DNA of 60,978 nucleotides, counting the filler, from Sphacelaria rigidula (Eukaryota): NCBI GenBank assembly GCA_964200075.2. It is 8 parts of 8 records of this genome, joined end to end, with 100 filler letters (N's around TTAATTAATTAA, not from the genome) between each part and the next. Parts side by side here need not be neighbours in the genome. Positions count along the whole stretch, not along the records: positions 1 to 7,536 come from CAXNAA020014455.1; 7 more parts are not named here. One strand, 5' to 3'. The number at the start of each line of letters is the position of its first letter. The first letter of the stretch is position 1. The notes beneath the pieces are model-generated. The model worked only from the letters and a program-made list of their open reading frames with translations, did no database searches and was not told the DNA's origin. Below are positions 4,275 to 58,856 of this stretch, in pieces. Position numbers and translations under genes: made by a program.

Positions 4275-7256
4275 TTGCGTACGACTAGCTCCATATCGCA
4301 CAAAAATAGCGCCGAGTCGTACCCTCAGTTGGGAGACCGACCTCTTCGCCGGACACGGAGCCAAACTACTGGCGGTTTGAAATATTTTGATATCAGTAGC
4401 GCGTCACATTCGACTACTCGACGAACGTACGCGAGCGCTGCTCGATCTCCGGGATTGGAAGACCAACTTTCAAGCGCTGCTCATCCTTCGGGACTTGGAA
4501 AAGAGACTATGACGCCGCGACCTATTCTCTCCAGTACCGATTCGGACTCAGAGAACAGGGCTGTGCCACTGGCTGAGTCATTGGCTCCTGACAGATATGT
4601 CAGCGAAGCCATAACGGTGGATTCCGTAGCAACCCCCTGGCTGCGGCCTGTTCTTCCGGATCCCGATATGGAACCCGAAGACAGGAATGTGCCCCCAGCT
4701 AAGTCGTTGTCCCTGGACACACGTGTCCAGTATGGCCCCGTAACCGTTGCTTCAACCGTGGCACCCCGTCGAGTGACGGTTGACAAATTTCGAGACGACC
4801 CAACTCGCGTGACAATATCTCGCCCTTCTTCCGCGTCAGCGGGCACGCCAGTCCCAGCTCTAATCTAGATATTTACGGCTTTTTGCCACGCCGCGTTCCA
4901 AGACTAATCGGCCTCCGCTCACGTGCAGTTCAATGATGACTCTGCACCTACCCCGCCCAAACCCGTACGTTTGGCGCCCCGATCGGCGACACCGCCGCGT
5001 TCTCCGTTCGTATCTCATGAGAGTTTCGACGAAGACCAGTTCAGCCCCTCCTCCACTTCACACCAAAGTTCTGCTCGCGTTTCTGGACTACGCCGCACAC
5101 AGACAGCTGGTCACGGCCACGTCACCCGTGCGGGCAGCCCCAGGGACAACTCCCGGCACAGCTTCAATTCCTCGTGCGTTCTCACACGCCCGAAGAATGT
5201 CGCTCATGGCCGGACATACGAAAGTAGTTCACGGCACAGCTCTGATTCATCGCGCGCCCCCACGCGTCCGATGAATACCATCCGTGACCGTACTCACGAG
5301 GGTAGTTCGCGGCACAGATCGAATTAATCGCGCGCCCCATTCCGCTCCAATAATGCCGATCATACAACCGCACGCATCCCTCCCGCTTCACCTCGGTCAC
5401 GCCGCCGTCATTTACGCAATGATAATACCATACATGCTGCCGACATTCAGAATATATTTTCGGACATGTCACCAGCTCTTGAATCTCAATGGAGGGATCC
5501 AGGTGTATAATTCATCGCGCAACCGACGACCCAGCACTGATCGCGAACCTCCGTCCCGTTCTGATGCTGCGATCATTTGCTCTCTGCAACAACAACTCGC
5601 AGATCTCAAACGAAGACTCGCCAAGACAAATATGGACAACAAAGGAGTACCCGCCGCCGCTGCTGTCTCGGCCGCTGCGCCTGCCGTCACGGCTGCTACT
5701 GTCACGGCTCACACCACAGTTGCCGCCCCGTCTGACGTCGACGCTGATAGTGGGCCCACAACTGATCCCGTCACGGATGTCCCCGTGCCCCCAACTCTGT
5801 CTGTGGAAGCTCTCCCTCCGCTCGGTGAAGAGCTGTAATGCGTGAGAGGACTGCGTGCTTAGAGGATCGCATCGAAATCTGAACATCCCTATGGTTAGGG
5901 TTAGGGTTAGGGTTAGGGTCAGGATTATGATCTGAGGCGTGGTGCCTCCAGGGACTGACCCGATTGGTTTTGAAAAACGTCGATCCTGAGATGTTTTGAA
6001 CTACGACACGGTCCTCTAAGCACGCGGTCCTCTCACGCATTACAGAGCACTGTCCGACTGGCCTCCTCTTGAGGCTCTTCAGGAACCGTTCCCGCGCGGA
6101 ACAATTGGTGCTGATCGAGGATTACGCCTCGAAAGCGCCGGCGCTCGCCGGGGTTATCTTCGATCAACAACGCGCGGCTGACTCCGCCGCTGCACGCCTC
6201 CTCGCCGAGGAACATGCTGACAGGCAACGGGATCTTCAGCGACAGGCCTCACTCGCCCACACGACGAACATGGCTTCGCAACGCTCCCTTCAGGAAGGTC
6301 GCACGGCTGCCATGGCGGCCCAGAAACGGGTGCGAGACCTGGAGGACCATATCCGACGGACCGCTCACGACGTGGCTACATCGGTGGCCCACCTGATCAA
6401 CCATCAGGCCTTTCCGCCGTCCGCCGGCAACCTGCTTAGTGATCGCCCTCCTCAGCCAACTTCGACCCACACGGCCCAGCCCAAGACCGGCCAGTCGACT
6501 TACAAAATCCCACGTAAGTCCGACCAAACGTCTTATGCTGCGACCACCGCCGTCCCCGAAACGGTCCCAACACCCCCGCTCCGAGCAGATATCTCGGCTG
6601 CCAATGCCGGTCCAACACCAGGCCTGCAATTCACTCACCACGAACGACTGTGGCTTACTCGTTCCGCAGCCGACTTTACCAGCCCGTTTCACAAGACAAA
6701 CCACGTACACTGCTCCCGCCAGGCTTGGAACTTGGTGTCCCAATGTCCACACCGCGTTGTTGGCCTTTACGTAGACCAGGGCGGATTCTTCCCCGACGAC
6801 GGCATGCCGTCCCTCACCCTGGGCCAACTGGTACTTCATTTGGCCATTGGCGCCGGCTCTGATCAGTCTCATTACGTGGAAACTGTCATAGGTCTTTTTG
6901 CGGCGCTACGCGCCGCTCACAACTCTGTCCCTGACGCCACCATTGCCGACGATGACCAGGATGACCATGGTTGGACTCCCACGAGTGCCAACTGCAGGGA
7001 AAAGAAGAAATACCACCGGCGCGGTGACGATGGCAACAATGGAGGAGGCTCACGCCGCCGCCATGGCGGCGGAGGATCCTCCTCGGGCGGTTCCGTACCG
7101 AACCGCCCGCTCCGCAATAACCGCGGCCCGACTCGGAAGAAAACAGGAGGCAAATCCTCCGGATCTTCCGCGACAGGCTGGAACCGATCTAGCACAAACC
7201 TCCCCCCCTCGGGTTCGGTGACATCCAGGCAAGTAACAGAGGGCTCTATAAAATGA
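4275..7256 (+). pseudogene. Decayed long ORF of unknown family (possibly a retroelement ORF1/Gag-like protein), interrupted by a MITE
   Basis: Consecutive Ser/Pro/Arg-rich ORFs 4275, 4923, 5284 and 6069 are broken by stops and a frameshift. It has coiled-coil-like segments (SLQQQLADLKRRL; AAQKRVRDLEDHI) and a basic Gly/Arg tail. Removing 5834-6048 joins the 5284 and 6069 ORFs in frame. Confidence 0.55.
5834..6044. mobile_element. 211-bp MITE with TGT...ACA termini, 4-bp TSD and internal (TTAGGG)4
   Basis: 36-bp TIRs TGTAATGCGTGAGAGGACYGCGTGCTTAGAGGAYCG with 2 mismatches; TSD GAGC at 5830-5833 and 6045-6048; TTAGGG x4 at 5895-5918. Confidence 0.93.
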
Positions 7257-7284: not shown

Positions 7285-7536
7285 GGCTAGCCAGTATGCG
7301 ACAAAAACCCGAGGGAAGTACCGTCCGCAAGTGCCTTCGATCATTTTCGGGGGGGTGGAGCGTAGTAATTTGTTGCTTGCCTTAGTCGTTTGACCATCGA
7401 CCACGGCCCGTCTCGAAAGGTCAATAGTCAAACGACTAAGGCAAGCAACAAATGAGTACGTCCCCCCCCCCCGAAAATGATCGAAGGCACGTGCGGACGG
7501 TACGTACCACAGGTGGTTGGGGCGTACTGGCTCGCC
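7285..7536. mobile_element. Foldback element (arms >=110 bp), truncated by contig end
   Basis: GTACCGTCCGCAAGTGCCTTCGATCATTTTCGGGG...ATTTGTTGCTTGCCTTAGTCGTTTGAC pairs with GTCAAACGACTAAGGCAAGCAACAAAT...CCCCGAAAATGATCGAAGGCACGTGCGGACGGTAC. Confidence 0.85.
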
Positions 7537-7636
7537 NNNNNNNNNNNNNNNNNNNNNNNNNNNNNNNNNNNNNNNNNNNNTTAATTAATTAANNNNNNNN
7601 NNNNNNNNNNNNNNNNNNNNNNNNNNNNNNNNNNNN
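7537..7636. other. Artificial contig linker (also 15172-15271, 22807-22906, 30442-30541, 38077-38176, 45711-45810, 53345-53444)
   Basis: Each is 44 N + TTAATTAATTAA (stops in all six frames) + 44 N, recurring every 7634-7635 bp. Confidence 0.99.
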
Positions 7637-10600: not shown

Positions 10601-12435
10601 ATGGCCCCCCACATTGAGTTTTTGAATTGTTTGCCGTGCTGCGCATGTTCCCCCAACCGTAGTTACGCTACTCCCTACAACGTGTTCATCAACTAGGGAT
10701 TGCGCGATGAAGCTTGTCTCCGGGCTCCATTGCACCTCGGGAGTCGTCGCGTAGTATTGCAATCGGCCACTGCTCTTTCGTGCAGCTATGGTACTACGCA
10801 GCTACTGTTTCACGGTACTGTACTGTGGATGGTCTGTACAAGCAAAGCCCTACAGCAGTACAGTCAGTTTATCGGCGTAAGGCACTGTACCTCCTGTACT
10901 GTTCTGTGTTGTACCACTGCTGTGCGCAGTACGGCGAGGACAACAGGCATATATGCTCTCTGCTGTTTGGAGCCATTTGTCGGGGGCGTGACACAGCGTC
11001 CATTTTATTGGGACGGGTAACAGCTCATGTCTTGTCCCGTGCCTAGCCCGAAGGTATTCATGCTTGCGAAGGTCTCCTGACTTCATTCAGAGACTTGCCT
11101 TACTCCACTACGATGTAAGGCCTGAAGGTTAAAAACCGATGCAAATAGGAAGATACTGAGATCCATCATTGTACTCCAGTCCAGCATATTTGATGGAGGT
11201 CCACCTAACGGCTGTACTGTTGTACACCGCATTCTACCTCGTAAAAAAACGGTGCGAAATAGGAGGGCTGGCAGACATATGTGCCCTGTGCTGGGAAACG
11301 AGAAGCTCATGCATCGCCAAGCGTGTACAACGTATATGCCCTGTATGAGAGACTGACGAAAGAGTACAATGCAGTGAGTACGTGCTGGATTGATGTATCT
11401 GAGTAGTGTGAAATTGACAGCTACGGTAGTTGTCGTACTGTCAACTGCCGACAACCCTTGGTCTTAACCTTTCACGGCGTCTAATGCCTTTGAATGCCAA
11501 CTTTTCTTTAATCCACTCAGCATAAACCAACGCTTCTGCTACCGAGACTCGTTCGTCAATGCCTTGCAATAAAAGGATCAACCCTGTGATCATCCAGCCC
11601 CCTGGTTGTACGCCGGTTGGTTGGGCTTTCGGGGAGGGGTTCGGCGTATAATAGTTGCTCTTGATAAAAAGAGATCGCCTAAAACAGACCGTCGCCACGC
11701 ATATGCGCTGTCATTATTATTTGTGCGAAGTCCACGATCAGCACAGCGGCACATTGGCCGTCGTGGTACATGAGACAATTCGTGATACTGACTATATCAC
11801 TAATAACGGTGATCTCGGGAGCAGTCCGATTGTTTTGTCCATGTGCGAAGATTCCAGTGCACCCCGAGTGCTTCCATTTCATCCCTTGGGTTCGTTCTCT
11901 ATCTTCTGCCCATCGCTTGGATCCCTGGCGGGTCAGTTAATGTACGACGAGTCAATCCATCGCACTCATGATTCAACCACACGATCAACAGCAAAACGAT
12001 GCACGGGAGGAAACAGAAGTGTGGACCTGCCTCCCTCGACCATTGCAAAAGACTCCCCCACGTCCCGCGGCCACAATTGCTTGTTTTAGGTAAACCTTGC
12101 GAACAAAACGTCCCATCAAATATTCGCGGGACTGTGATTAAATGATCATTCGGAACATTTAGCACGAGTGCCAAGGGGTGAAATATCTCTCAGTTCCTGG
12201 ACACACACCTACCCCCTCCCCGCGCCCGGTCCCCGGTGCTCCGTCTCGAAAAGGATGCATGGTGAACAGTCAAATGATCAAGGCAAGCAACAAATGAGTA
12301 CCCCCCCCCCCCCCCTCTCGACCTCACTAAACTCCCTGTATGGTTGTGCTCGTTTTGTCCGCATCTATACAACCCNNNNNNNNNNAAAAGATGAAAGGTA
12401 AAAATTCAAAAGACCGAAGAAACCAAACAAGATCG

Positions 12436-15171: not shown

Positions 15172-16112
15172 NNNNNNNNNNNNNNNNNNNNNNNNNNNNN
15201 NNNNNNNNNNNNNNNTTAATTAATTAANNNNNNNNNNNNNNNNNNNNNNNNNNNNNNNNNNNNNNNNNNNNGAATGTTCTGGGGTATGGGGGAAGGGTGA
15301 GGGCGTGGGGAGGGCGGGGGGGTGGGGGGGGGGGGGGGGGGGGGGGGGGGAGAGGGAGGGGCTCCGTGTCCGAAAATATTATCTCGACAGACCCTTGGTG
15401 TACATGCAAATTGAACCACGTGCGTACGGAGTGAAGTGGAGTTTTGAACTTATGCATGGGCGGCCTGATTCCGCGTTGCGTGTCACCGTTAACCATGAAC
15501 TGTTGATAGGCCCTCCCACATGCTCTCGTTTTGCAACTTGTTTCACGCAGTGCAGAGGGCACGGATGGGATGATGAATGATACAATGTGCCATACAGTTC
15601 GACTCCACTCAGTACCATGTGTCCAACTTGTACGTTGTCTGTGTAGGAAAACAAACCGGGAACATGATTGAAATGATGATGTACAGAGAGGACGCCACAG
15701 CGACCGCCTTTCGCATCATAATGACTGCTACTACATATGCAGAATATCTACACGAAGTATTGTTGTATTGAACACTCTCATCCATGTTCGTGACCACTGC
15801 TACCAGCATCCCGCGCAGCATTCAAAAACAAGATTGGTACAACGACCTGGCTGTATCTTTGCAGAGGTCGTATCAAGATTTTTCTTTTTCTTTTTTACAT
15901 TCGAAACTGATCTCACCCGATTGACGCACATGAAGTTCCAGGAGGGTACTATCTGTTCCAGCACAGAAAATACAAAGCTAGGGTACAGTCAGTGCAGAGT
16001 GAAACAGTATACAGACAGATGGTAGAGTACACCTGCTCCGCACACAGCTGAATACTACATACCGATATCTCCTCATCAGCGCATCAACACCCAAATGTTG
16101 GTACCATTGCAG

Positions 16113-19100: not shown

Positions 19101-22100
19101 TCGCTGCCCTGCTTAGTGGTGAACTCCGACAACTATAGTATGTGACCGGAAGTACTGCTGCCTGCTCTGGCGGCTTGCTTTGATCATCCGTCGAGCACGC
19201 ACCATGCGCGAGATGCGGCGGGCCGAAGCACTCATGTTTCGCGCCTCGTCGTTGAACGTTCTACATCGTCGGCTACAGCGTCCATGGGTAGAACCCCCCG
19301 TGACTTCGTTGTTGATGATGACAATGCTATCGTTGTTTGCCACTTGTCGCGAACTGAGAAGACGATTTTGTCTCCTTCGATGTAGGATCCGTGAGCGTGA
19401 GGCGTATCTGTGTTCCCAAGGAAAAATTTAAACCTGATTCAAGCGTGCACAAGCTGTGTCATATTCACCGAAATACCCCCCCCCCTATGCATCTCTTGGT
19501 TTGTTGAACATGGAATAAACAATGTGGTAACAAGTCGCTTTCCCTTGGCGCGGTTTTGTTATTTTGCGCGTGGTGCGACCCCGCTCGACAACCGACCGTT
19601 CTCGTTCACAGCCGTGGGGGTACTACGGCCATCAGCGCGCAGGTCTTCGATGGAAGTCACGGGAACGGACAAGGCGCAGGCGCCCACGCAGCCACCGGCA
19701 GTATCACCGCGAACTACGCCGGCAGGGTTGCCGACCCGAGGCAAGAGCGCTCAAGGAAACGAAGGCGAAGCAGAGAAAGCGCCATCGACAGCTGTGGGTC
19801 TCAATCTCCCGATCGCTCGCCCCCGCCAGAAGAACCGGAAACAGATGAGGCGAAAGGCGGGTTGCCCGCGGGAGCGGCAGCCGATGAAGCTTCTGCCGGG
19901 GAAGAGTTGACGGGTCCCGGAAGCGGTGGCTCGCCCGCGGGGAAGCGTTTCGGGGGGGAGGGAGGGAGCGGGCTGGCTGGCAGCGGCGGTGGCGGTAGCA
20001 GTGGGGGTGTAGATATTGGGGGAGCGCCGCTGATGGACGGGGTGCTGTTCAGCGTGGAGGAGGGAGACTACGCCGCGGACTCTGAGCGGAGCACCGACCA
20101 CGAACCGACGCAAAGGTACGGCAACAGTGGCGGCGATGCCCGGGAGAGCGATGAGCAAGAACAGTCGGAAAGGGAGAGAGAGATAGCCCGGCGAGGGAGG
20201 GGTCGACGGCGAGGGAACGGAAACAAAAGTAGCACTGGCGATGACACAACCGGGGCCTCCGGGTCTGGGGTTGAAAGCAGCGGGCGTCGTACACGGGGGA
20301 GAAACGCACCACGCAGCGCTCGCGGAGGCGGAGGCGTCAGTACGTCTGGCGGCCGAGCCTCCACTTCCGAGGGTACCCTGTACCGAGGCGGTCGGAGTAG
20401 ATCCAGGCAAAACAGTGACGACGAAGAGCTGGTAACATCACGACGCGGCGGTTCAACGCCCAAGCGCCGTCGGGTCAGCGGTGCTAGCGGTGGTGGCCGA
20501 CGAGTGGGAAGCCGGGGGGGCGCTTCTGGGGGAGAGGAAGACACGCCGGCGGGTCGCCAGTCGAGATCGAAACATGAGGTCATCCGATCCAGCCGGGACA
20601 CCACGTTCGTGTCTACTGGTGGTGGTAGTAGTAGGGGAGGTTTACGCGATGACAGCCACATGGATGTTACTATCGCCCTTGGTGGCGCGGAGGACGAGCC
20701 CGAGATTCCTCAGGACGAGAGAGGGTGTGTCAAAGCGGACGAGGTTGAATGCAAGCCCAAGCGAATAGGACAGCTCAGCATGATGTCGCGCGGACAGCAG
20801 CAGGAGAAGCACCACAACCACCACCATCACCACCACAATTCCCCGCCGCAAGGCAACAGCGGTGGGGGCGATCATGCGGCCGCTGTCCCCGGCGGTGGTC
20901 AGCAGGGAATGTTCAATGTCGGCGTGTCGAGCCTCTCTGCGCAGTCGCCAAAGAAGCACGAAGATGGCCGCGATAACGCGAACAGCTGCACTAGCTATGC
21001 TTCTGCCGTTGCTGGTTGCGAGCCAGAAACAATTGCCGACCCAGGAGGGGCACGAGCGAAACCGAGAGGTGAATTGAAAGGCGCAAGCCACGGCGTCATG
21101 ACCAATAGTGATGTTGACGACAGCAGTTGTGCAAGGGTGGGCGGCGGTCACGATGGTAGCGGCACGAGCAGCAGCGTCACCGGGAACGACTCAACTCTCG
21201 CTGTGGCGGCGCCCAACACTCCGGGGGGAGTGGTACCTTGGCATCACACAAGCGTGTACGAGGCAAACGATCCGACGGAGGACCGGCACGTGGAGCTTGT
21301 CGATGAGGCCCTCGGGGTGCGGATATACTGCGTGTGCGACGGCCACGGCGGCAGCCGGGCGGCGCAGTTCGTGTGCGACAACCTTGCGAAGGACGTCTTG
21401 GCGCAGGTTGAGGAGATGGCGGGGGTAGCAACACCTCCTCGTCGAGGTCGGCGCGCCACCGCGAGCGCGAGCGCCGGCACCGGTACCGGCAGCAGTGGCG
21501 ATATTTGGGCCAAGGGTGTAGACGACGAGGCAGTTCGGCGGTTGCTGAGTGACGCGTTCTCGTCTTGTGACCAGCGGTTCATCGCACAGCTGGACCCGAA
21601 GAAGAACCGAGGTTACATTAACGCTGGCTGCTGTGTTGTCCTCGCGCTTCTCATCCGCTCGAGACTATTCGTGGCTCACGTCGGTGACTGCCGGGCCGTA
21701 CTCGGCACTACTGATGCCACGCGGTTTCCTGCGGAGATCACTTCGCTGGCGGGCACGAAGCATGAGCGCGGGGTGTCTCAGGGACGTAAGGGTGGCAGCG
21801 CCGCGCAGAGCAAGGCAGGGGCTCCCGCAACCTCTCCCCCGTCCTCCCCCTGCCCTGGATCCGGTTCTAGCGGGGCCGAGATGGGAGAACTGGTGGCGGT
21901 CGCTCTATCGCGGGACCACAACTGCAACGATGAGGATGAGGTGTCTCTGGTGAGGGCCCGAAGCGCGGATGATAACGCCATCCGCGTCAGTCGAAATGAT
22001 GAGTGGAGAGGTGCGAGGGCCATCAAGCGCGTCGCCGGGTCGCTCGCCGTGACGAGAGCGATCGGAGACGCGTACCTCAAGGAGGCCGTGTTCAGCTTCA

Positions 22101-22111
22101 GTCCTTACAAG
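16113..22111 (+). CDS. Large PP2C/PPM-family protein phosphatase, partial; exons 16113-16340, 17393-18322, 18498-18661, 18914-19048, 19612-22111 (1319 codons)
   Basis: All four GT-AG introns have matching phases (0,0,2,2) and give an open frame. PP2C motifs in the last exon: ANDPTEDRH, VCDGHGG, GCCVVLALL, VAHVGDCRAVLG, LSRDHN, GSLAVTRAIGDAYLK. It ends at donor AAG|GTAAGG; the SDG and DN/DD motifs are not in this contig. Confidence 0.88.
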
Positions 22112-23091
22112 GTAAGGTGACTGAGCGCATGTTGCCGTAAAACCTTATGCCATTACCCTGTGGGGGAGGAAACGTATATCACTTGCCTCGTGGTGAAGTC
22201 GTGTTTGTCGTATCGTTCATAGTCTTGTTTTTTCGCTGCTGATGGATGAAAAAAAAACGGTTTTTATGGGGTATTCTATGTATATTTTTTTTGTCATCAA
22301 GAACGGAATACTTGGCGTTTCCACGCTCTCGACCAAGCCATAACGTTTCCGCAGTCGGCTCGATTGTGTCCTCCCAAGTACCCACCTCCGCCTACCACAA
22401 TTTCCAATACCCTCTCAGGACCGAAGGCCGAATGGGTAGGGCGACTTGGGTACAGAGTCAAGCCACAGGATGCCAAACGGAAGTTTACTGGGCGCAATTC
22501 CGAGACAGTCTAGGACACTTTCTGCGATAGCCCCCTCACCCCCCAAAACCAGCCAAAAACTGTCACAAACAGAGGGGTCATCCGGCGCCTGGTGTTTGGT
22601 TTCAGGCTGCATGAAGCGCCTCATATGGGCGACATTGGCGAAAACGAACCCAAGCGTGGGAATTCCCAGCTGCTCGTTGAGCTCGTTTTTTTCATTACGA
22701 TTTACGGGTAAATTTTGCCTCCCCAAACCAGGCACTTTTCTGGGGGGGGGGGGGGGGGGGGGGGGCGCGAAAGAGTGCCGGGGGGGGGGGGGGAAAACAC
22801 CCTCACNNNNNNNNNNNNNNNNNNNNNNNNNNNNNNNNNNNNNNNNNNNNTTAATTAATTAANNNNNNNNNNNNNNNNNNNNNNNNNNNNNNNNNNNNNN
22901 NNNNNNACTCACTTAAAGCGAATGATCAAAGCCACTCTCAATCGTATCATCTACTCTCAATCTCACGAAAACACTGTTATACACCGTCGTTCTCGCGTTC
23001 GGCGCAGCAACGCGCACACCACATTTCGGGACAGTCGGACAAGAAACTCGGCTTTCGTGTCGATTTTTGTTTCCACTTCCGAAAGCCGGTC

Positions 23092-24019: not shown

Positions 24020-24222
24020 GAGAGTTTCGGAAAACGCTTTTTGTTCATCTCAGAATACAAATATCTCAGGATCAGAGTGTAACGGAAAAATAGTTCCCCC
24101 TCCGTTAAATGTGGTTTCCCCTTGAATTTTTTTTCCGATGAGCTGTTCTTTTTCTGCTACTGCACTCTAATCCTGAGATATTTGCGTTCTGAAATGACAA
24201 AAATGCGTTCTCCGAAGCTCTC
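24020..24222. mobile_element. MITE with ~60-bp TIRs and GAGAG...CTCTC termini
   Basis: GAGAGTTTCGGAAAACGCTTTTTGTTCATCTCAGAATACAAATATCTCAGGATCAGAGTG pairs with CACTCTAATCCTGAGATATTTGCGTTCTGAAATGACAAAAATGCGTTCTCCGAAGCTCTC. Confidence 0.8.
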
Positions 24223-30200: not shown

Positions 30201-30785
30201 ATGGTCGCATATGACATCGGAACTTAGAGGGCTGGCAGTAGTCCTTTTTCTTTCCTATTTTTTCTCCCTTTTTTGATACTTTTATTTCATTTGTGTTTTA
30301 GACCCACTTTTATGGCAACGAGTCCCGATTTTTACAAATATGAGGATTTCAGCCCATCTACAGGCAATTTTCTCCCGTGGATTGATTTTTGGCACCCCAA
30401 TCCGTTGGGCAATGTTTTTCGACTAGCTGTGAGCAAACCAANNNNNNNNNNNNNNNNNNNNNNNNNNNNNNNNNNNNNNNNNNNNTTAATTAATTAANNN
30501 NNNNNNNNNNNNNNNNNNNNNNNNNNNNNNNNNNNNNNNNNGGGTTTTCCCGCGGCAGTGTTGAGAGTGTGATATTATCGTCCGGACATCTTTCTGACCA
30601 CCCGCCCGATGCTTTCGACGGAGGAAGTGGCGCAGAAAACGGTGTTCGATGGCAGGGTCCAGCAGGCGTGTGATATGTGATGGGTAAGGCCTGCCCCCTG
30701 CGGTGGACTGTTCGTTTTCCCTTTATTTCTGGGAAGCGGACACGGAGGGGATCGTGAGCACGCGATCGTGAGGGGATTCATCCCC

Positions 30786-32426: not shown

Positions 32427-33775
32427 ATGATGTGGCGCTGCGGGCGAATCTTTTTCGTCGCAGAGGCTGCCTGCGCTTGCTGTTGTGCAGTGAAAAGCTT
32501 GGCAGCAGCTTCGGCCATCACCATGATGGTTCACCAGCAACAACAGCTAAATCCGACCGGACTTACTGACTTCAACGAGTCACGCAGACTGCGGCCTCGG
32601 GCAGCAGCGGCAACAGCAGCTGCTGTGCCACTTTTCCAATTACACCCCGGGGTTGCTGAGATAGGTCGGGGGAGGATTTGGCGAAAAAGGAAGCAACTTC
32701 GAAAGTGTCGCAGTGCTGCTACAGATGTTGCACGGATGCGGGGCGGGCAGCCCGCAAAAGTCGCTCAACGGGTGCGCAGAGGAACATCCGTTGCTCCAGC
32801 TGTCGGTGCTCCTCGCAACAGGTGAGCCAGGTCATGGCACGCACGCCAAGTACCACCGTATACCCCGATTCTTTGTGTAACCCGGCTCTCAGCAAAGCCC
32901 ACAAAAGTCGATGTGACTGCATTGAAGACGGCTCACGTAACCAACAACAGGATCTGCATGGTGCAGTAATTCGAAGTACAACGGATCGATCGACTTAAAG
33001 CGTTCAAACTTTAAACTTCATGTCAGAATCGGGCGTTACACCTACGCACCGCCTGGTTACGCAGAAGGCATACCCTATAGAGTACGGTGCATACCACCCG
33101 CGCCCAGTGACAGATTCCTGGGATCGGCATGTATTTGCACCCGGCGTGGTGTTGAGGAGCGTGTGTTATCTTGCCCGTTATAGTACGGTAGGTATCGGCA
33201 TTGTTGCAAACATTGCTCCTGTTAATAACCTTCCTGGGGTATAATCCAGGGAGGGGGGCTACTGCGTCCCATTGAGATCAAAAAGAGAAGCGGGAATAGG
33301 AACAAGCGTCCAAAAGCGGCATGCCAATTGATCACCGACAGGTCTTTGGTTGCAGCGGCGAATCAACATGCTGCTTTTGGACGCTTGTTCCTTATCCCGC
33401 TTTTTCTTTTCTTTTCTTTTCGTGTCTCGAAAAGGCACAACCTTACAGGCACAGACAATCTACAATCGACGATACTGTTGTACCGTGGCACTGATGCTAC
33501 TGTCATTGTTGCGACTCAGGGAGTTCAGCCGTGCTGTGAAGCGAGCCCTGCGCGATGTCGTCTGACCACGCGTCCGTACCCGATAATAGCAATCGTCCGT
33601 TCATTGACGCAGATGGCTGGCTGCGCCGTGGGTATTGCGAGCTGCGGCGGCCGATAATGAAGCACCACCGTCCGAGGGTGCGGAGCTGGCCACCAGGGGC
33701 GGAGGGCAATATCGACTCATGCTAGTAGATGATGAGGAGCCACTGCTGAAAGCGGTTTCGGAGTACCTCCAACAG
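32427..33775 (+). CDS. Response regulator (receiver domain start), 5' part; exons 32427-32821 and 33613-33775; probable signal + transit peptide
   Basis: Phase-2 intron AG|GTGAGC...GACGCAG|A joins the frames. Exon 2 ends RLMLVDDEEPLLKAVSEYLQQ, the beta1-DD-alpha1 start of a receiver domain. The N-terminus is hydrophobic up to AAASA-I, then Arg/Ala-rich. Apparent GC donor CAG|GCAAGC. Confidence 0.72.
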
Positions 33776-38076: not shown

Positions 38077-39438
38077 NNNNNNNNNNNNNNNNNNNNNNNN
38101 NNNNNNNNNNNNNNNNNNNNTTAATTAATTAANNNNNNNNNNNNNNNNNNNNNNNNNNNNNNNNNNNNNNNNNNNNATACCCAACTACTTTCGTGTATCT
38201 ATTCCTGTGCTCAACTCGTGCTCTATGCCGCAGGGTTGCGGTGGTAGCTGATAATTAGTTGGATGGACTTTGCATCTTCCTGTGAACGGGTGTTATTTGG
38301 CGTGGTGGTCTGTAAGATAAGAGTCAAGTGCCGCTTCGTGCCTTTCGACTGTATGTTTTCGATCGTTTTTTTTTTTTCACTCGTTGCATTCTTCTCCGCG
38401 CGCCGCTAATTATAATTTTGAGTTGAAGCCTTCGTGGAACACAAATGCGGTGAACCTATCAGATAGGCAAAAAAAGACGATCGCACTTTTTCGATCGAAA
38501 ACAAAAGTGCTAAGACACGCCCTTAGTGGGGGTCCGGTCCCAAAAGCGTTAAAGTGGGGTCGACTGTAAACCAAGGTCCTGCAATCAGACCAATGCAGCG
38601 ATATAAACACAATGACGAAACTTCAAATCAATTACGATACTTGCCAACGATGCGCTACGCTGTACAGCACAACCGATCAATTTCTCCTTGAAAATAATTT
38701 TCTCGGAAAATTCCTGGTACTGCGTACAGTCAACAATAAAATATGTACGTACCATAATACCATGTTTTACTGCGCTACGTCAAGCATTCAGTAGTAAAAG
38801 GTGAGTAGTGACGTTCGTTGATGTCGCTGGGTCCGTACTCGATAATAGCGCTGTAGTTGTAGTGGCGTTCGTTCATCTTGTTCGGTTCGTTCGCGGCGGT
38901 GTTGTAGTATAGCTACTCGCCTCATTCCGTACTCTCACCCGATCGTGGTTGCCGCAGTGGTATGTTTTCGTGGTGTCGAAAATTCCAAACAGTGAAGTAC
39001 GCCTGATCGCACGGGCAAGTGTTCCGTTTCAAATGAAACGCAGGAAGTTCAAGTGTCATGATGGTGTAATGCGTCCTGTGCTGCTTCGAGAAGAACGATG
39101 TCACCGGTGGTGCTCGAGTGCTCTGAAGATGTGCTCCTGGATGCTGGCCTTTCGATAGTGGATACTTCCCTCGGGCTTGCTGGTGGAGTCGCTTGGGGTG
39201 GTTGCTTCTTGAAAAAGCAGGTGATGATTTTCGTTTGTTGTGCTGATTACCCTAGCTGATGATATTCTTTACCGCGTCTCCTGCGCTGGATTTTTCTGGG
39301 GTGTTGAATCGCCCCGCTTTTCTCGTAGGCAGGTGAGGTAGCTAGCCCTCGCTGCAGTACTGAAGGGCCTCCTTTCTTGATGTCAAGCACTTCTCTGATG
39401 TACCCTTTCTCCTCTCGTGTCTTTGTGACTTCGATATC

Positions 39439-39718
39439 TGTAGAGTAGTCCACCTCCAGTACACGTACGTGCAGGTTCATGATGATCTACAAGTGGAACA
39501 ATCTGCTGTAGGCGTTTTTTATTGGTTGACGGACTTGCGGGTCTGATCGGCAGACTATGTGGATTTGAACATCACATGCTTCACGCATGTGGTTACTTCC
39601 GATAACGAAGGCTGTGTGTTTATGAACAACAATTGCCTTGAAGTCTCCAGGCCCTAGTGAGGGAGGAAGCCCTTGGAGCTATCTTGTGACCTTGTTCTGA
39701 GTCCAGGAGGGCTCTATA
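39439..39718 (+). repeat. 5' LTR of element A
   Basis: TGTAGAG...CTCTATA; ~95% identical to 43711-43990. Confidence 0.9.
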
Positions 39719-42700
39719 ATAAACGTTTATTAAGAGGAACCCGCTGGTTTCTGGAAGAGGTTTTTCAGCTGTGAGCAGCTGCGGAGAAATTATCTAAAAC
39801 TTTGTACACAGGAGTGTACACTCTGTAACGTGAGGGAGCTCGCTGACAACGGAGAGACGGCTAGGTTGGCTGGAACTGTTGCGTGCAGCTATGGCAACGC
39901 GAAAGAAAGTGGGTGATGGCGATGCAGGTGAAGAGGTGAAGTTTAAGTTGACTGAGCTTATGCCTGCAGGATCGCTGAAAGCCCCAGAGTACGGACGGCA
40001 TTCTAGCGAAAATGCGTCCCGACGTTTTTATCAGAAACACGTCGAGTGTGAAGAGGCGGTCGAAATGAACAACAAAGGACGTAGCATGCAGGCCGTCTTA
40101 CTGACTGTTACTGAACTGGTGCCGAAGCACATCCGTGCGTGTTTGTCACGCGCGATTTTGACGGATCCGTGCTTGACAAAGATGATCTCAAGGAGGCACT
40201 AGGCCGACACGCGAAATTTTGGGAGGATGAAGAGATTGATTCTTCAGTTGCTGCTGCTGGTGTGCGGAAAGCGTTGGCGGCCCGCAACGAGCAGACTGCA
40301 ATGGGAAGAGTAGAAGGGCAGTGGGGTGCCCTGGAGGATTTTTTTGCGGAGAATACTAACGCTGAGCGTGCGTTCCGCGATGATGCAGATTTCAAACCAG
40401 GATCCGCTCAAATCATAACTCGGGAAATGTTGAATGGACTGACCTCCCCCCGAATTCAAAACTAAAGTCCTCAACATGTTGAACATGAAGGGAGGGTGGA
40501 AGGAGGACCCTGGGCTTATGTTCAACACGGCTCGGGAAGCAGCGGAGACATGAAAGACGGTGGACACGGCGGATAAGCAGCGCCGTCAGCAGCCGCAGCT
40601 GAAACAAAGGAGTGGTAGCGGGACTTCCGGAAGCAAGCGCCAACCAAATGGTGGAAAAACGGCGAGCAGTGGAAATGGGACTGCCAGTTTCGGGAAAACC
40701 CGCAAACCAGGCCCAAATTATGCAGGATGTTTCATATGTGGAAACAAGGGCCATTTCCGGAAGAATTGCAAGCAGCGAGGCCAGGCTGGATCTACACAAC
40801 GTAGTGACGGTGAGCAGACGAAGGCTGGCGACAAGCAGCAGCAACAACAGCAGCTGTCGCAGGGCCCTGCACAGGTGCCTCGCGGAGGGGGCACGAGTCC
40901 CGCTCCTACAAGGGCTGTCTTTTCAGCCGATGGACAAAGTGCTCCCAGCGGGGGGGCGACGGTGCCACCAGAACCGGTCGCTTCTACTGGTGGCGTGCAG
41001 CAGACCATCTCATCGCACTCGTTCCCGGATTCGAACTCTGCGGCGGTGCCAGCATGGAGGTCGCTCAAAGCGGGTGAGGTGTCAGGTTTTCAATCTGAGG
41101 GTCTGCAAGTAGATCACAAGGAAAGATGGTGTCTTGCCGACTTGTCTGCCCTGAGTGCAGGGGAAAAGGGTGTTTGTCCGGCCACGGCTATTTTAGATTC
41201 AGGATCTGGACTTACGACCATGTCAGCTGGTGTGGCGGCGAAATTGCAAGCCATGGTTCCAGATGTCCAAGTGGTGAGATCGATGACTGGTGAACCGCTG
41301 GTGAAATTGGCAAATGGCAATGTTGAGGCGTGAAGCAGAAATCTTGCCCTGTCCGCATCGCTTTACACACCAGCTGGGGACCGGTTATGCTGGACCCATG
41401 TTCATATGTGGTCATACCGGGTACAGATGATGTGATCATCATGGGGAGTCCTACGCTGAAGGCGCTAGGCATTGACGTGTACAGTAGCTAAGGTGCCTGT
41501 GCACGTGCAAGAAACACTTCGGTGCGAGGTGTGAACACGCCTGATTTTACGAACTGTCGGCGTGTCAGTACCGCGGTTGACGGTTTACAGCAACCAGGAG
41601 GTCGGGCGGAGCCCGTTTATTCCTCAGTCGAGCGGTTGTTGTCGAGGAGTCCGGCGATGAGCATATCCCCGAAACAAGAGCTTGCTGAGCTTGATGTTGC
41701 GCCGGAGGAGGCAGTACAAGCCGCCGCGGGTAAGGGCATATCGGATAGCGACGTGAGCCAAATTCGTGAGCCTGTACGGAACAGAGCGAGCATTTTTAGG
41801 CGAGTGCTGCATGGTTATCCGCCTGATCGCGTCGAGCCCTTGAAGGTGAAATTCAAACCTGCTGCTGTGGAGGTAAAGGCTCGGCCGAGGGCGTACTTTC
41901 CGGTCAGGATAGCGTGGTTGGCACGCTGCATCGCAACATCGGTGGCGCTCGGGCTCGTATACTGCAGTTTGCAGGTAGAGTGGGCTAGAGCGGCGATTGC
42001 AACGCCCGAGAAGTCCAGTTTCCGCTGAATGAATGCATACAAGGCGGGGGAGGGAGTTTCCCGTCACCACAAGGAGGTGGTGCATGGTGTTCGCCCAGGG
42101 AAGATTTTTCATTTCAATTTTCTCAGTGTTGGCGAGGGTAGTCCGCTGGGAGATAATGGCTCGGACAAAGGAGATCGGTTCAAGTACATATTGGTAAGGA
42201 TGGATGACCCGGGCGACTTCGTGTGGTTGGAGCCCGCGGAGTCTTGTACAGCGTCAACGACGGTGAAGCATCTGTTGACGTGGTGCAAAGCGCAGGGGCC
42301 GCAGGAGGGATGGGTCAGCGATACGGTATCGCAATAGGAGAATCGTGTGGTGAGAGTGCTCAAGAAGATGCTGATGGATCGCAGATTCGTGGTGGCCAAC
42401 TCGCAGGTATCACATCGTGAATATGAGTGAATGGTGCGTGACATTGTTCGTACCTTGAAGGTCACAATGCAGAGAGGAAGACGCGATGTCAACGCCTGGG
42501 TGGGTTTGGTACCTGCCGTGCAGTGGGCATTGCACACTGGTTTCCGGGACAGCTGTGAGAGCTGTAGCTGCATCCATGATGCGAGGAGCGACTGTTGGAG
42601 TGGAGATGCCACTGTACGGTGTGGACGAGATTGTAGCTGGAGAACTGCTGTTTTTCAGGAGGAGCGCAGGAGAATTACGAGGCAGGCATTGCCTGAGGTG

Positions 42701-43710
42701 CTCGATGTTGCGGTGAGCGCCGGATTGGGTGATGTTAAGAAGCGAGTACTAGTGGAATTGCTTGTTGAAAATGAGGAAGCACATTGTGACTTGTATACCT
42801 GAATCGTTTTGTGGACGATTGTAGGTGGTGGTGATGTGGTTCCTGGACTTGTCTGTAGTGTCGCGCTGGTTGGCACGCATGATACACGGTGGTTTCTGCA
42901 AAGAAGCTGCTGAGTGAAATATAAGCATGCAGCTGTGACTGATGTGCATGGTGTCTCATGAAGAGTCAGAGTGACGTAGTTTCCAATACACTGCTGTGTG
43001 CTGAATGAAATAAAGCTCGTATATCATTTTTCGCGCAAACATTCGGATCATCTTTGTGCGGTTTGCAGATACTGCCTGTAGGAGATGGTGATTGCTGCTG
43101 CTGGCGTGAAAATGAGCGGAAACTACGAGATGCGTAGGCTTGTATGTGAACAAGTATAACGGGAGTATTTCCAGAGGTTGACGATAAAAGAAATCGTACG
43201 CGAATACAGTGGTCTTTTACTTTGGTACATCTTTGAGTGTTTGGATAAGCGCATACATGGTGCTTCGCATCTGCAAAACGGAGAATGTGGATGGTGTGCC
43301 CATTTTTCTGGAAGAAGCACCGCCTATTTGTTCTGAGCTGCGTCAGTTGGAACTGAGTCAAAAGGTGCGGGCACGGTTGTAGGCAAAGTACGGTGTCAAG
43401 CTTGAGTGCATGGTATGATCGAATGCTACGGTTTGAAATGGTATTATCCTCGGCGCGTTTGCTTTGTGTGAGCATGTCACGACTGGAAATTGCCGTTGAA
43501 TGAATTATTGACTTCACTAAATTCAATTGAGACGCTGTGTTCAAGTGTCGTTGTTCAGCGTTTTGCGAATGATCATTTTCATTGTGAACATGACATAGCA
43601 TGGTCATGTGTCACCAACAGGCGGACGAAGGTAGCATGAACGTGTTTGTCGGTGTCTACTGTTTGTCAAACTCGCTTTCTACTTCGAGTAGTGCGGAGTT
43701 TTGGGGGTGC

Positions 43711-43990
43711 TGTAGAGTAGGTCACCTCCAGTACACGTACGAGCAGGTTCATGATGATATACAAGTGGAACAATCTGCTGTAGGCGTTTTCTATTGGTTG
43801 ACGGACTTGCGGGTCTGATCGGCAGACTATTTGGATTTGAACATTACATGCTTCACGCATGTGGTTACTTCCGATAACAAAGGCTGTGTGTTTATGAATA
43901 ACAACTGTCTTGAAGTCTCCAGGCCCTAGTGAGGGAGGAAGCCCTTGGAGCAATCTTGTGATCTTGTTCTGAGTCCAGGAGGGCTCTATA
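43711..43990 (+). repeat. 3' LTR of element A
   Basis: TGTAGAG...CTCTATA, preceded by GGGGGTGC at the PPT position. Confidence 0.9.
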
Positions 43991-45636
43991 GTACTCAGCA
44001 GCAGCCGCAGCAGCAGAACCAGCAGCATCAAGGGCAGCGGCGTCAGTATGAGCCTGGCTCTGGGTCCGACGCCGCCGTAGGTGCTGCTGCTCCGTAACGG
44101 GCGGTGCAGGTGGGACCGACTTCTGCAGAGTCGAACACTGCGCCGGCGCCGGTGGTGGCGCCGGTGGCGACACCGGCAGCAGCGCCAGGCGCGACGCCTG
44201 TTGAAGCGCTGGTCGGAAGTTCGCCAAATTCTTGGCCTGCTGGCTGGGAGGCGTACCCGCCGGCGGTGCCACTTGAAGCCGCCGGGGTGTCTTCGCCTGC
44301 GCAGCTTGCGCAGCCGTGGCGTCAAGTGGGACTAGCGGCGCATCTGTCAGCGGAAGAAGTGCCAGTGGAGCTTGCCGACAGATACATTCCGGCGGAGTTG
44401 TGTCTTCCGAATCCACGGCAGCGTGGAGCCATCGTGGTCCGGTCTGTGTTGGATCATCGCGCCCATTTCACTAGTCTGCCGGTGCAGATGGTTGAGATGC
44501 TGGAGCATCTTCTCCCGGGTGTGCCGCTGCGTATCCCGTTTCCGCTCGGGGCGCGGCAGGCAGTCACCACGTCGGGTCAGCATGTTTCCGTCACGGAGCG
44601 CACTGTTCCACTGCAGCTGGCTTTCAAGACTGCTTGGGGGCCGGCGCCGTTGCCTCCGATCTTGTTTGCGATTATCCCAAGGTCGGATGGCGTTGTTCTT
44701 CTGGGGCTGCAGACGCTACAGGATCTTGGAGTCGATCCGTATGAGCGGTTCGAGGACTCCATCAAGACGCGGGTGTCTCCGCCTGGTCCGCACGTGGAGA
44801 CGGCCGCCTTTTTGGGCAGTCGTCGCGTGAGCTTGTCGGTGAATGCGTTTCGGGAGACTGGGAGGCAGGTGACCGAAGAATGGGATGCGGCGATGGAACG
44901 CTTAATAGAGCGCGGCCCGGATATGTTCATGGACCGGGCGGGAAAGGAGTCCACTCAGAAGGTCGCGCTGGAGGAGAGCGTGACGGATGTTATGGCGAAA
45001 GGCCCTAGCGTTTCAAAAGCGGAGCGCCTGCGCGGGATATGGCATCGCCGCGTCAACGCGTTTCGTCGTGCGCTGCGGGATGATCCCCCTACGCACGTGG
45101 AGCCCATACGTGTTTAGCTAAAACCTGGGGCGTCCGCGGTGAAGGCGAAGCCGCGGCGGTACTATCCGGTGAAGTCGAGCTGGTTGGCGTTGTGCATGGC
45201 GGCGGTTTTGGCGCCCGGGTTGGTAGTTCGGAACCTGCAGGCAGGATGGTCCAGTCCAGATATGACGTTTCCAAAGAAGGCTCCATCGTGGACGGAGGGC
45301 AGGCTGCAGGTGTGGGCGGTAGCGAAGGATCTGTTGGCTCATGCCGTCACGCTGCTCCATACTCGTCCTGGTTGTCAGGTGTCAGTGTTTCCGGATGTAT
45401 ATGAGTGTCATTGGGGTAGTTTGGTCATGCAGGTGCCTACAGTTGAAATTCAAATGCCTGTGCGTGCTGTGGCTGTGTATGGTCCATGTGAACCTGATGA
45501 TTCGATGCTCTCCAAATCTTTTGTCCGCCAAGCGCAACGGAAAAACCTTGGGGCCGAAGATGCGGATGTGCAACCTTTCGAGTCGGACGTTGGTACTGCC
45601 ATCTTGGATAATGAAGGTATGTTCCGCGTGCATGTG
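43991..45636 (+). mobile_element. Ty3/Gypsy element B fragment (gag end, protease, deleted RT/RNase H); same family as C
   Basis: Colinear with the minus-strand copy 57185-58860: VQVGPTS, YIPAEL, protease site VLDHRAH (DSGAH in C), VKAKPRRYYP, WSSPDMTFPKK, VSVFPDVYECHWG. Confidence 0.88.
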
Positions 45637-48026
45637 ACACTTTCTACGATAGCCCCCCCCCCAAAACCAGCTAAAAGTGTCACGAAAACAATGGCCATGC
45701 AGCGCATGATNNNNNNNNNNNNNNNNNNNNNNNNNNNNNNNNNNNNNNNNNNNNTTAATTAATTAANNNNNNNNNNNNNNNNNNNNNNNNNNNNNNNNNN
45801 NNNNNNNNNNCCCCCCCCCCCCCCAACTAACCGGAAGACTTTTTCATTCTCCCACCCCACCCCCCCCCCCGCCCCCCCCCCCTCCCCTCCATATGTGAAA
45901 TGCGAGGTTCATTCACCATTCAAAACACGCACACGCAGACACACATCTATCGAAAGGACACGCAGGGTACACAAAATATAAGACCAGTAAGTAGTATCGA
46001 AAACAACAACTACATAAGATACAAAATGAACACAGGAGGGGGGAGGGGGAGGAAGGGGGGGGAGAGGAGAGGGGAGGGTCATTTCCCACATCAATGCAGT
46101 CCACCAAAAAACATGGTCACATCACAGTCGACTCCATGGTACATCATCATCGAGGCTGCACAGTCCCCAGTATATTACTGCTACTGCCACTACTACGCGA
46201 TCATACATGCAAAATTGTGACCGAAACCACCTCTCCATGGCACACACCACACCAAACCACACCTCACAAACATAATACATACACACACACAAGGTCTTCA
46301 CCCGACATGTCAGTATGACATTCCGTCACGTAAATGTGCGCATATGTGTAAATATATACGATATCATCGGGTAAGCCTTCTCTCTGTTTTTTCTTCTCTG
46401 TCGAAAATTCGATCCAAGAAACAACAAACCGGAGCCGCCGCTTTCTTCCCTCCGTCCTTCCTGTCTGCCGTCACGAGTGACCAGCTGTGCTGCAAAACCA
46501 TACTTACTTTCGTTCATCTTTTGAAACGCACACCTCCCCTCCCACCCCGGAGTGCCCCGTCTCGAGATGAAGGCGTGGTCAATGGGCAAACGACTAAGGC
46601 AAGCAACAAATGAGTACGCCTCCCTCCCCCCCTCCCACCGGAAATAGGGTACGGTTCGGACGAATCATCGCCAGTTCGAATCACCAAATCCGCGGTATTT
46701 CAGGCTTGATTCCTTGAAAGAGAGGAAAAAGTCGATCGCAGGTGAAAAAGGTCTCCACGCAAATTTTGCGTCATTCCACGCCCCTGGGCCGCGCGTACCT
46801 GGGTTGCAACGCTGAAAACAAAGCCCAAGGATTGATTCGTACGGTACGAATCAACCTCACTAAAATCAATTAATTTCCAGACAAATCGTCAATTCATCCG
46901 ACCCTTGAAATAGAGCAACACATAAAACGCGTGTCATATATTTCGGATTCAAACGGTCCTTCCAGGAACAGGAATGGGCCTGACACGCACACCGAACACT
47001 AACAAAAAGGTTTCCCCCATGTCTATGCTGTCAAGTCAAGCGCCTAGAATTTGCACTTGCGCCCTTTGCCTTCCTTACCGCTCCCAAGATCCAACGCTGC
47101 AGGCGGTTGGCTAACGGTAGAGAACGAACTCTATTTCCTCCTCCTATATACCCCACAACAGAAAGTACGCAGGCGAGAGATACCCCTCCCTCCTGCAGTA
47201 CATGTAGCTATATCTAGCGTCGTAATCGGTGTGTTGAGAAAGTATGACGTTCACTAAATATCAAATGGGCTTCCAGCTCGCGCACACATCTTTTTTACTC
47301 GATGGGGGAAAAAAACAGCGGGAAACTGACTCGAAACGTTGTACTAGTACCACCACTACCTCGACTACGACCAGACCTGTCTCATCATCTCTGCTGGAGC
47401 ATGACACTCTCAAACACCACCACAACAACTGCATCTACGACGAAGCACGAGGGAAGAACACGCACACATGTACACTAATACCCACACCCACACACTCGAA
47501 GAAACAGACAGGAACGGAAAATAAAAAGCAAAAGCAGAAGCAAAAGCGAAAGCAAAACAGAGGAAGATAAGCAAAGTAAAAACAAGGCAAAACGCACCGC
47601 TTGCAAGGCGGAGAAAAGACAAAACAAAACAAAACAAAACAAAACAAAAAAACAGGAGAGAAGCGGGACAACATCAACACAATAAAAGGAGTGCCGCACT
47701 ACGATGGGACCTCACACGCCACATGTCCCGCATCGGCGCACGCTCAACAATCACGGCTGAACCATGACCGCGATAAGCGGCGAGTAACTTTCCCCCCCTA
47801 CGGCATACGAGATCGTGAACACCCCCCCCTCCGCTTCTCCCTCCTGGCCGCCCTCAAAGGTCAATGGTCTTATGACTACAGCACGCAAGATCATGACCAC
47901 ACCCCCTCCCCCCCTCCCCCCCTCTGCCTCCCTCCCGCTTGTGTGGGGCAACCCGTTTAAACCAGCGGGAAAAGACGCAAACTTTTTCAACCGTAGAACC
48001 GCCAAATAAGAAAAATACTTGGCATG

Positions 48027-49102: not shown

Positions 49103-49537
49103 AGAAACACGAGATTTTACAAATTGGGAGTGAATATTGTATTGAGGATGAAAACCCGGAGAATTAAAACCTTCGTATCCACACCAAATCTTCGAAGTAT
49201 GCTTCCATTTCTTCACTTGCTGGTAGCTTTTGACAACTACTAGACGCCATACAAATTTGGATTTCGATAACCGAAATGTCGGGGTCCTAGGTGAAAAAAC
49301 TTTTTTGGGTTCGATCGGATCACCTAAATACCCCAAAATTCGTTCTTCACCTGGGACCCCGACATTTCGATTATCGAAATCAAAATAAGTATGGCATGCA
49401 GTAGTTGTCAATAGCTACCAGCAAGTAAAGAAATGGAACAATATTTCGAAGATTTGGTGAGGGTACGAAGATTTTGTTTCTCCGGGTTCTCATCCCCAAG
49501 ACATAATCCATCCACAATTAGTGAAATCCCGTGTTCA
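49103..49537. mobile_element. ~435-bp imperfect palindrome (foldback element)
   Basis: Arms pair along ~200 bp, e.g. GATTTCGATAACCGAAATGTCGGGGTCCTAGGTGAA with TTCACCTGGGACCCCGACATTTCGATTATCGAAATC, and CTTGCTGGTAGCTTTTGACAACTACT with AGTAGTTGTCAATAGCTACCAGCAAG. Confidence 0.88.
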
Positions 49538-49985
49538 GAAGGGGAAATGTGGGTAGTAAATGAGGTGACATGAAAATCGTACGGTACATCAGACAGTAGC
49601 GAGAAAGCCATCGCTTTATGAGGGGATGGATGATGGTATTTTGAAGGCGAATCAGGAAGGGGATAAGGCATGTAAAAAGGTCCCTGTGTAACGTACGGAA
49701 GAAACGTAATGAGCGTCCAAATGTTGGAGGTGCTTCTATTACGGCTAGGAACGGCACCCGGTCTAGAAAGGGGTACTGGTGGATTGTCTTATGACTACGG
49801 CATGCATGATCATGAGTACACCTCCCACCCCCCCCCGTACGGTTGTTTCATTATTCTCACACCCTCACACCTACGCTGAAGTAAGGGCGGGAAGTACTAC
49901 GAAGTATTAATATTCATGTTGCTTGATGGACAAAAGTGAGTATATGCAGCAAAGTGGTGCTATGGTAGGATTGCAAGGGCAGGTC

Positions 49986-50166
49986 GAGTAGAGTATACTC
50001 AATTGCGGGGTATTTTAAAAGTCGTACTTGAAGTGCACAAATTGGGGGTAGGGTTTTAGGGATTGCTCTCCAATTATTTCTTGGGTACGATTTTCAACAC
50101 TGTACCCGAATTCGAGTACCTCAAGTGCGTCTTTCGAAATACCCCCCAATTGGATATACTCTACTC
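49986..50166. mobile_element. MITE with ~50-bp TIRs, GAG...CTC termini and near-TSD GGTC/GATC
   Basis: GAGTAGAGTATACTCAATTGCGGGGTATTT pairs with AAATACCCCCCAATTGGATATACTCTACTC. Confidence 0.8.

Positions 50167-58806: not shown

Positions 58807-58856
<50 letters not shown>

Follow-up and report, generated by a model that had tools for sequence, protein, structure and literature searches.

Within DNA of Sphacelaria rigidula (GenBank assembly GCA_964200075.2) we identified a 211-bp element, at positions 5834-6044 of the window, that carries a short array of the telomere-type repeat TTAGGG between long terminal inverted repeats. The window is the whole stretch that was analysed, 60,978 nt in length, comprising eight parts of eight records joined end to end by filler; the element lies in the first part, from record CAXNAA020014455.1. 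We propose, at a probability of roughly 60%, that it is a non-autonomous miniature inverted-repeat transposable element (MITE) of an abundant family, mobilised by a transposase of the Ginger1 type and carrying the telomere array as a passenger. Each of the features by which MITEs are recognised is present, namely terminal inverted repeats, a target site duplication with an empty site, and a small, non-coding, multi-copy body.

The element begins with TGTAATGCG and ends with CGCATTACA. A repeat search returned inverted arms of 42 nt that are 90% complementary (5833-5874 and 6004-6045). Counted inwards from the TGT and ACA ends, 18/18, 34/36 and 37/41 positions pair. With 36 matches this is the top inverted repeat in 5001-7000, against a maximum of 17 and a mean of 12.1 in shuffled sequence (n=200). 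The terminal 18-mer is confined to the element's two ends within the window (0.04 occurrences expected) and gave 0 matches in metagenome_contigs and 0 in viral_contigs. Folded as single-stranded DNA, the element forms one long hairpin of -60.9 kcal/mol (z = -11.1), and 0/200 shuffles were as good. An earlier note, made from the sequence alone, had described a 211-bp element with 36-bp inverted ends. The size is borne out; the 36-nt ends themselves hold two mismatches. That note was also correct in placing two AGAGGAYYG sub-repeats in each arm, which we find spaced by 16 nt, and in calling a perfect GAGC duplication, which can be read directly on both sides. The interior between the inverted ends amounts to approximately 130 nt and opens with the TTAGGG array, where (TTAGGG)4 is followed by decayed TCAGGA and TTATGA units, just as first reported. 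This is the sole (TTAGGG)4 run in the window. The element is non-coding and BLAST found it as a single copy in the window. Rfam and tRNA scans of the window found nothing.

To place the element among its relatives, positions 5400-6500 were compared at a likeness of at least 80% with public contigs from four runs, here called X1, X2, X4 and X5. The 1.1-kb stretch was matched by 8069, 8279, 3326 and 9108 contigs in X2, X4, X5 and X1 respectively. In X2 the summed word depth was approximately 300-1000 on most flank bins versus 1.6e5 on 5844-5880, and it peaked at 1.55e6 on 5992-6028. Junctions were counted among the listed contigs, beyond which there are a further 891 rows, so that each count is a lower bound. 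On the left, at least 70, 67, 35 and 72 contigs (X2, X4, X5 and X1) diverge before 5834. On the right, at least 371, 356, 147 and 418 diverge after 6044 and at least 191, 185, 69 and 204 after 6045 in the same order of runs, while at least 51, 49 and 60 diverge after 6046 in X2, X4 and X1, the X5 figure not being listed. Beyond both ends the flanks are unrelated among contigs (consensus agreement 0.31-0.38). Because the contigs diverge here into unrelated flanks, the family is bounded by TGT and ACA, and its distinct insertion sites number several hundred at the least. We also considered a 2-bp duplication with CTGT...ACAG ends and rejected it, since most family contigs diverge directly past ACA.

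A small number of contigs (5, 2, 3 and 4 in the four runs) join the element's end to its start (6044 to 5834). Such joints lend something to the view that the element is a solo long terminal repeat (LTR) or a miniature LTR element, reverse-transcribed and inserted by a Ty3/Gypsy integrase with TG...CA ends and 4-6-bp duplications. Gypsy elements do occur in this genome, and LTR elements are reported to have TG...CA ends and 3-6-bp duplications (PMC10045372). However, in the sole end-to-start contig with a listed spacer the copies are separated by only about 5 letters, which resembles adjacent insertions and not an internal domain. Moreover, inverted ends pairing at 34/36 positions together with a strong hairpin are typical of MITEs and not of LTRs, and across hundreds of contigs there is no shared primer-binding or polypurine sequence beyond the ends (agreement 0.31-0.38). 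We therefore regard an LTR origin as very unlikely.

Coverage by contigs is uneven along the element. The right third (approximately 5955-6065) has 5-10 times the depth of the left third. One contig in each of X2 and X1 joins 6045 back to 5961 (back 85), so that the final ~85 bp recur head to tail, and further joints lead from 6044 to 5964 and to 5970 with 28-34 letters between; a few joints fall on opposite strands. The deep right third and the back-joints may hint at subfamilies, tandem arrays or a satellite derived from the right end.

The site of insertion can be reconstructed from an interrupted host reading frame (Table 1). Once 215 nt are removed, that is the element and one GAGC, a frame of 588 aa runs from 5275, and removals of 213, 214, 216 or 217 nt give frames of 193-230 aa only; restoration of frame, taken alone, is a one-in-three event. 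Contigs that join 5829 to 6045, skipping 215 nt with four letters that fit both sides, were found in all runs (8, 6, 2 and 11 in X2, X4, X5 and X1), in rows flagged 'between: not known'. Two database proteins, both retrieved with the downstream half alone, cross the junction unbroken. P0079 aligns with residues 44-76 on the end of the upstream half and 77-157 on the start of the downstream half, and P0086 with residues 43-74 and 75-129 on the two halves; both are gapless at the junction, reading ...PL(S/G)DE-HCPTG.... The contig joints and the read-through of P0079 and P0086 show that relatives of the host frame without the element exist, and that they match exactly its excision together with one duplication. 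The restored frame, the joints and the two unbroken proteins all agree with the earlier note's claim that excising the element and one duplication fuses two open reading frames (ORFs). Since the ends lie at TGT and ACA and the difference at the locus is 215 nt, the duplication is 4 bp long. Taken together, TGT...ACA ends, a 4-bp duplication, a true empty site and many copies with unrelated flanks uphold the non-autonomous family that had been proposed.

The host frame is itself repeated: tens of contigs match its flank bins, with 10-40 contigs per difference site. It contains no Pfam domain. A word-based search with the downstream half found no homologue, and an exhaustive protein search of 1.84 billion representatives with this half alone returned 12 short relatives, P0079 and P0086 among them. 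The frame (region 4864-7256) belongs to a repeated, lineage-restricted ORF family, and bin 5400-5473 is approximately five times deeper in contigs than the remaining flank.

An interrupted frame also raises the question of splicing. The element could be an introner, removed from transcripts so that the frame still gives protein, and its ends do read GTAATG... and pyrimidine-rich ...TTACAG in both orientations once the flanking G is included. Transposon-like repeated introns with inverted and direct repeats are reported from algae and dinoflagellates (PMC7789003). With one host GT, at 5825, the AG at 6044-6045 forms a pair that restores the frame. This is nonetheless 1/6 of the nearby GT-AG pairs, no better than chance, and we rejected that intron on these grounds. 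An intron bounded by the element's own GT (5835) and the AG at 6045 or 6047 would span 211 or 213 nt and leave 231 or 194 aa. The AG, moreover, requires a flanking G that is missing in 61% of family junction contigs, and the host frame is a repeat with fragmentary relatives only. An introner is thus extremely improbable.

Table 1. Features of the element and of the host reading frame that it interrupts.
Feature	Position	Strand	Observation
Upstream half of interrupted host frame, C-terminal ...PPLGEE	5275..5833	+	Matches P0079 residues 44-76 and P0086 residues 43-74
Left target site duplication copy, GAGC	5830..5833	.	Read directly; contig joint 5829 to 6045 with 4 letters fitting either side
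Left terminal inverted repeat, begins TGTAA	5834..5874	+	AGAGGAYYG sub-repeats at 5845-5853 and 5861-5869
Telomere tract, (TTAGGG)4 at 5895-5918, then decayed TCAGGA and TTATGA	5895..5930	+	
Internal non-coding part	5931..6003	+	Right portion, from ~5955, far deeper in contigs than left third
Right terminal inverted repeat, last letters TTACA, two sub-repeats	6004..6044	+	Nearer family majority than left arm
Right target site duplication copy, GAGC	6045..6048	.	Read directly and from contigs
Downstream half of interrupted host frame, starts HCPTG read from 6048	6049..7256	+	Matches P0079 from residue 77 and P0086 from residue 75

The telomere tract belongs to the family and not to this copy alone. 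The contig comparison skipped 5883-5933 as a repeat, and thus TTAGGG unit numbers in other copies were not read from it. A second class of loose ends gives access to the same region. At least 127, 129, 61 and 134 listed contigs (X2, X4, X5 and X1) diverge at 6009, and at least 30, 13 and 42 (X4, X5 and X1) at 6004. The sequences beyond these points share a consensus (agreement 0.72-0.92) that contains two CCCTAA units and matches, in reverse complement, the inner part of this copy's left side. We interpret these loose ends as left ends of the family that fit the right arm better because the left arm of this copy has drifted; the family majority differs from this copy at 5867, 5875, 5879, 5944, 5991, 6006 and 6008. 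The shared consensus with its two units makes a tract of at least two units, beside one inverted end, ancestral to the family. The earlier note had named loss of TTAGGG from other copies as the sign of a one-off telomerase repair insertion. Instead, at least two units are shared by family contigs, and we reject a one-off insertion.

Conservation of the tract may be read in two ways. Its junction with the inverted end is conserved across more than 100 family contigs per run, as would be expected if the tract were functional and kept by selection, whether for recruiting telomere proteins in targeting or silencing, as a seed for healing breaks, or as a regulatory box. However, a recent burst of copies would give equal conservation, and in this copy the two flanking units have decayed. 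TTAGGG motifs in subtelomeric satellite units of Ectocarpus have been proposed as healing seeds (PMC11541908), a parallel that speaks for function. The four GGG runs do form a G-quadruplex motif (5898-5918), as the first reading of the sequence had it. Such motifs are common here, with 14 on the + strand and 12 on the other, and because there are 26 in the window the element's own motif is not distinctive. We consider a selected function improbable; spreading as a passenger of transposition is the default reading of the telomere repeats.

Regarding the enzyme, Ginger1 elements are reported to have TGTNR ends, inverted ends of 40-270 bp and 4-bp target duplications, which in Hydra are CCGG in 75% of cases and CCGT or ACGG in 24% (PMC2836005). 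The present element has TGTAA at both ends, with family contigs stopping at TGT/ACA, and this copy has a 4-bp duplication. Its inverted ends, at 42 nt and 90%, stand at the lower edge of the Ginger1 range. The target is GC-rich, as in Ginger1, and the flanks lean towards CCGG/CCGT: in all four runs the left-hand family consensus has (C/T)CGG or CAGG as its last letters and the right-hand one has CCG(G/C/T) as its first. Neighbouring groups agree less well. Ginger2 is described as preferring AT-rich RTATAY targets (PMC2836005), and such a Ginger2/TDD target is found neither in GAGC nor in the GC-rich consensus flanks. GingerRoot and IS3EU are reported to make 6-bp duplications between TA...TA ends, as opposed to 4 bp and TGT...ACA here. 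Mobilisation by a Ginger1-like, integrase-type transposase would be the best single reading, at little better than even odds.

Several observations weigh against the interpretation set out at the start. The target of this copy is GAGC and not CCGG or CCGT. The first base past ACA is G in 242/613, 234/590 and 264/682 listed contigs of X2, X4 and X1, and since this is approximately 39% of listed flanks a strict CCGG target does not fit. Overall agreement is low among the majority strings that give the CCG(G) signal. Ten flank letters are common to X2 and X1, so that the signal may be driven by some copies lying within one larger repeat. An autonomous Ginger1 partner would be expected to encode a YPYY-H2C2-DDE-GPY/F transposase with an OTU or Ulp1 protease domain. 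Pfam scans of 195 ORF translations from the window (17, 51, 96 and 31, a few duplicated) revealed neither a reverse transcriptase nor an integrase core or any other DDE domain; the matches at or near cut-offs were PP2C, Integrase_H2C2 and a marginal zinc knuckle, the others being weak and below cut-offs. The length of the duplication is known from this one copy. What we know of the family is drawn from contigs assembled in two studies, of which one is possibly the window's own source, and contig depth is not copy number. Finally, TTAGGG is taken as the telomere repeat of this organism from its relatives: the Ectocarpus telomere is reported as (TTAGGG)n (PMC11541908), and conserved genes of this genome look brown-algal. 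The earlier assignment to Ginger is plausible, with TGTAA ends and the 4-bp duplication in its favour, and with the GAGC target and the lack of a DDE transposase in the window out of keeping.

These same points leave some room, though we think it unlikely, for a MITE of another or undescribed superfamily with 4-bp duplications, such as a Sola-like or IS481EU-like one, in which the Ginger likeness of the ends would be convergent. No transposase was found among the 195 translations to contradict this, the target of this copy is not CCGG, and in the family CCGG is weakly preferred. IS481EU of parabasalids is reported to have TGT...ACA ends and duplications of ~4, 15 or 25 bp (PMC10045372), so that both the ends and the 4-bp duplication fit. 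Reports of IS481EU are, however, confined to parabasalids and give the duplications in those discrete lengths, and the present host looks brown-algal. Likewise, Sola1 MITEs are reported to make 4-bp duplications, but their ends and AWWT target are unlike those of the element (PMC3845634). The GC-rich flank consensus suits Ginger1 better than either.

The earlier note had further speculated that Gypsy elements lacking reverse transcriptase might serve as helpers. The only ORF with an H2C2 zinc finger in the window lies at 56840-57436 on the minus strand. It has 11 longer relatives, 5 of which (the three closest, at 71-80% identity, and two more distant) carry reverse transcriptase, RNase H, H2C2 and integrase core. 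Because its relatives carry these domains, this ORF is, judged by homology, a truncated Ty3/Gypsy pol and neither a Ginger transposase nor a member of a special class without reverse transcriptase. The proposal of such helpers finds no support in this comparison, the copies in the window being simply truncated.

We hypothesise that transposition proceeds as follows. A transposase supplied in trans would bind the inverted ends, the sub-repeats being its probable binding sites, and would cut at TGT/ACA. Cut-and-paste insertion at nicks staggered by 4 nt would then have duplicated GAGC and split the repeated reading frame. The enzyme may be a Ginger1-type DDE transposase resembling an integrase, as TGTAA...TTACA ends, the 4-bp duplication and CCGG-leaning flanks suggest. 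The telomere array would have been present in the founder of the family, having arisen by telomerase-mediated break repair or by capture. Transposition would copy the array passively, leaving hundreds or more short interstitial telomere tracts across the genome.

Parts of this arrangement are known from other systems. The animal elements described as Ginger1 share with the present one the form of the 5' end, the duplication length and a GC-rich target; the family's choice of target is much looser than the 75% plus 24% of Hydra, and the window holds no transposase that we could detect (PMC2836005). Two insects, Bombyx mori and Rhodnius prolixus, harbour MITEs derived from Ginger2, with tens to hundreds of copies (PMC3845634). 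These Ginger2_NA elements are likewise short, with TGT... inverted ends and 4-bp duplications. However, they are 531-651 bp long and sit at AT-rich, TATA-like sites, with no report of telomere repeats in them, whereas the present family is 211 bp, sits at GC-rich sites and is far more abundant. In a lineage related to our organism, Ectocarpus has a subtelomeric satellite of ~98 bp with three TTAGGG motifs (PMC11541908), and here too the motifs lie in a repeated unit away from the tip. That satellite is tandem and confined to the subtelomere, in contrast to the present element, which is mobile and dispersed and has inverted ends and a target duplication. Penelope-like elements lacking endonuclease are also mobile elements bearing their host's telomere repeat, although they are of reverse-transcriptase type, carry the repeat at the 3' end and are located at chromosome ends (PMC4522978). 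In our element the repeat is internal, the element is of DNA type and the insertion is in an interstitial repeat.

In mechanism this is an ordinary MITE, and its cargo and abundance are what is unusual. MITEs are commonplace, and those derived from Ginger elements have precedents in insects. In full-text literature on MITEs and DNA transposons with telomere repeats, no such family was described in the matches examined; supplementary tables of brown-algal genome papers may list it. Matches on telomere-repeat transposons concerned telomeric retroelements, satellites or unrelated use of the words. If abundance matches contig depth, most interstitial telomere tracts here would stem from transposition and not from chromosome fusion or break repair. 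Elsewhere such tracts are known for fragility, for binding proteins and as possible seeds of healing. Should the enzyme be confirmed, a stramenopile lineage would join the known hosts of integrase-type cut-and-paste transposons. It is doubtful, but would be of consequence, that a Ginger-like MITE family has kept a telomerase-templated tract because it is useful, providing hundreds to thousands of telomere-protein sites and healing seeds. Transposition would in that case keep supplying the genome with new potential chromosome ends, or with places where telomere proteins bring about silencing.

The window holds other repeats besides. The Ty3/Gypsy pol fragment is present in two inverted copies that are 81-92% alike (43996-45762 on the + strand and 57182-58837 on the - strand), one of which keeps H2C2; its named relatives are from Scytosiphon (83%) and Sphacelaria (77%). 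Direct repeats of 284 bp, 95% alike (39438-39721 and 43710-43993), surround approximately 4 kb that includes a zinc-knuckle ORF (40554-41333). No reverse transcriptase was detectable in the interval 39438-43993, which has the look of an LTR element, either decayed or non-autonomous. We rejected these 284-bp repeats as kin of the 211-bp element, as they start with TGTAGAG, unlike its ends. Six hairpin-like inverted repeats of 130-430 bp (843-1266, 7285-7536, 24020-24222, 33280-33410, 49106-49535 and 49974-50178) are probably other MITE families. They were rejected as further copies of the element: at the reported arm coordinates none starts with TGTAATGCG, and BLAST found no second copy.

A frame at 19508-22120 (63% GC) encodes a C-terminal PP2C phosphatase domain preceded by a low-complexity N-terminal part. 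One protein of 752 aa is 100% identical to it, and its nearest named relatives, at 56-61% identity, are from Ectocarpus, Scytosiphon, Pylaiella and Hapterophycus. A haptophyte/plant cluster suggested for the PP2C part by Protein Atlas was overruled by these brown-algal named matches.

Filler N blocks, which are not biology, lie at 7537-7636, 15172-15271, 22807-22906, 30442-30541, 38077-38176, 45711-45810 and 53345-53444, each a pair of 44-N stretches and spaced by about 7.6 kb, the first of them cutting a hairpin-like repeat at 7536; a further block of 10 N lies at 12376-12385. Long homopolymer G/C runs occur at 15307-15361, 22742-22765, 53294-53312 and 12300-12315, several of them edging repeats, and the longest single run is of approximately 28 G inside a 55-nt G-rich block. 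The window opens with a trinucleotide array, (GTT)n / (GTC)n, of approximately 150 bp (1-157).

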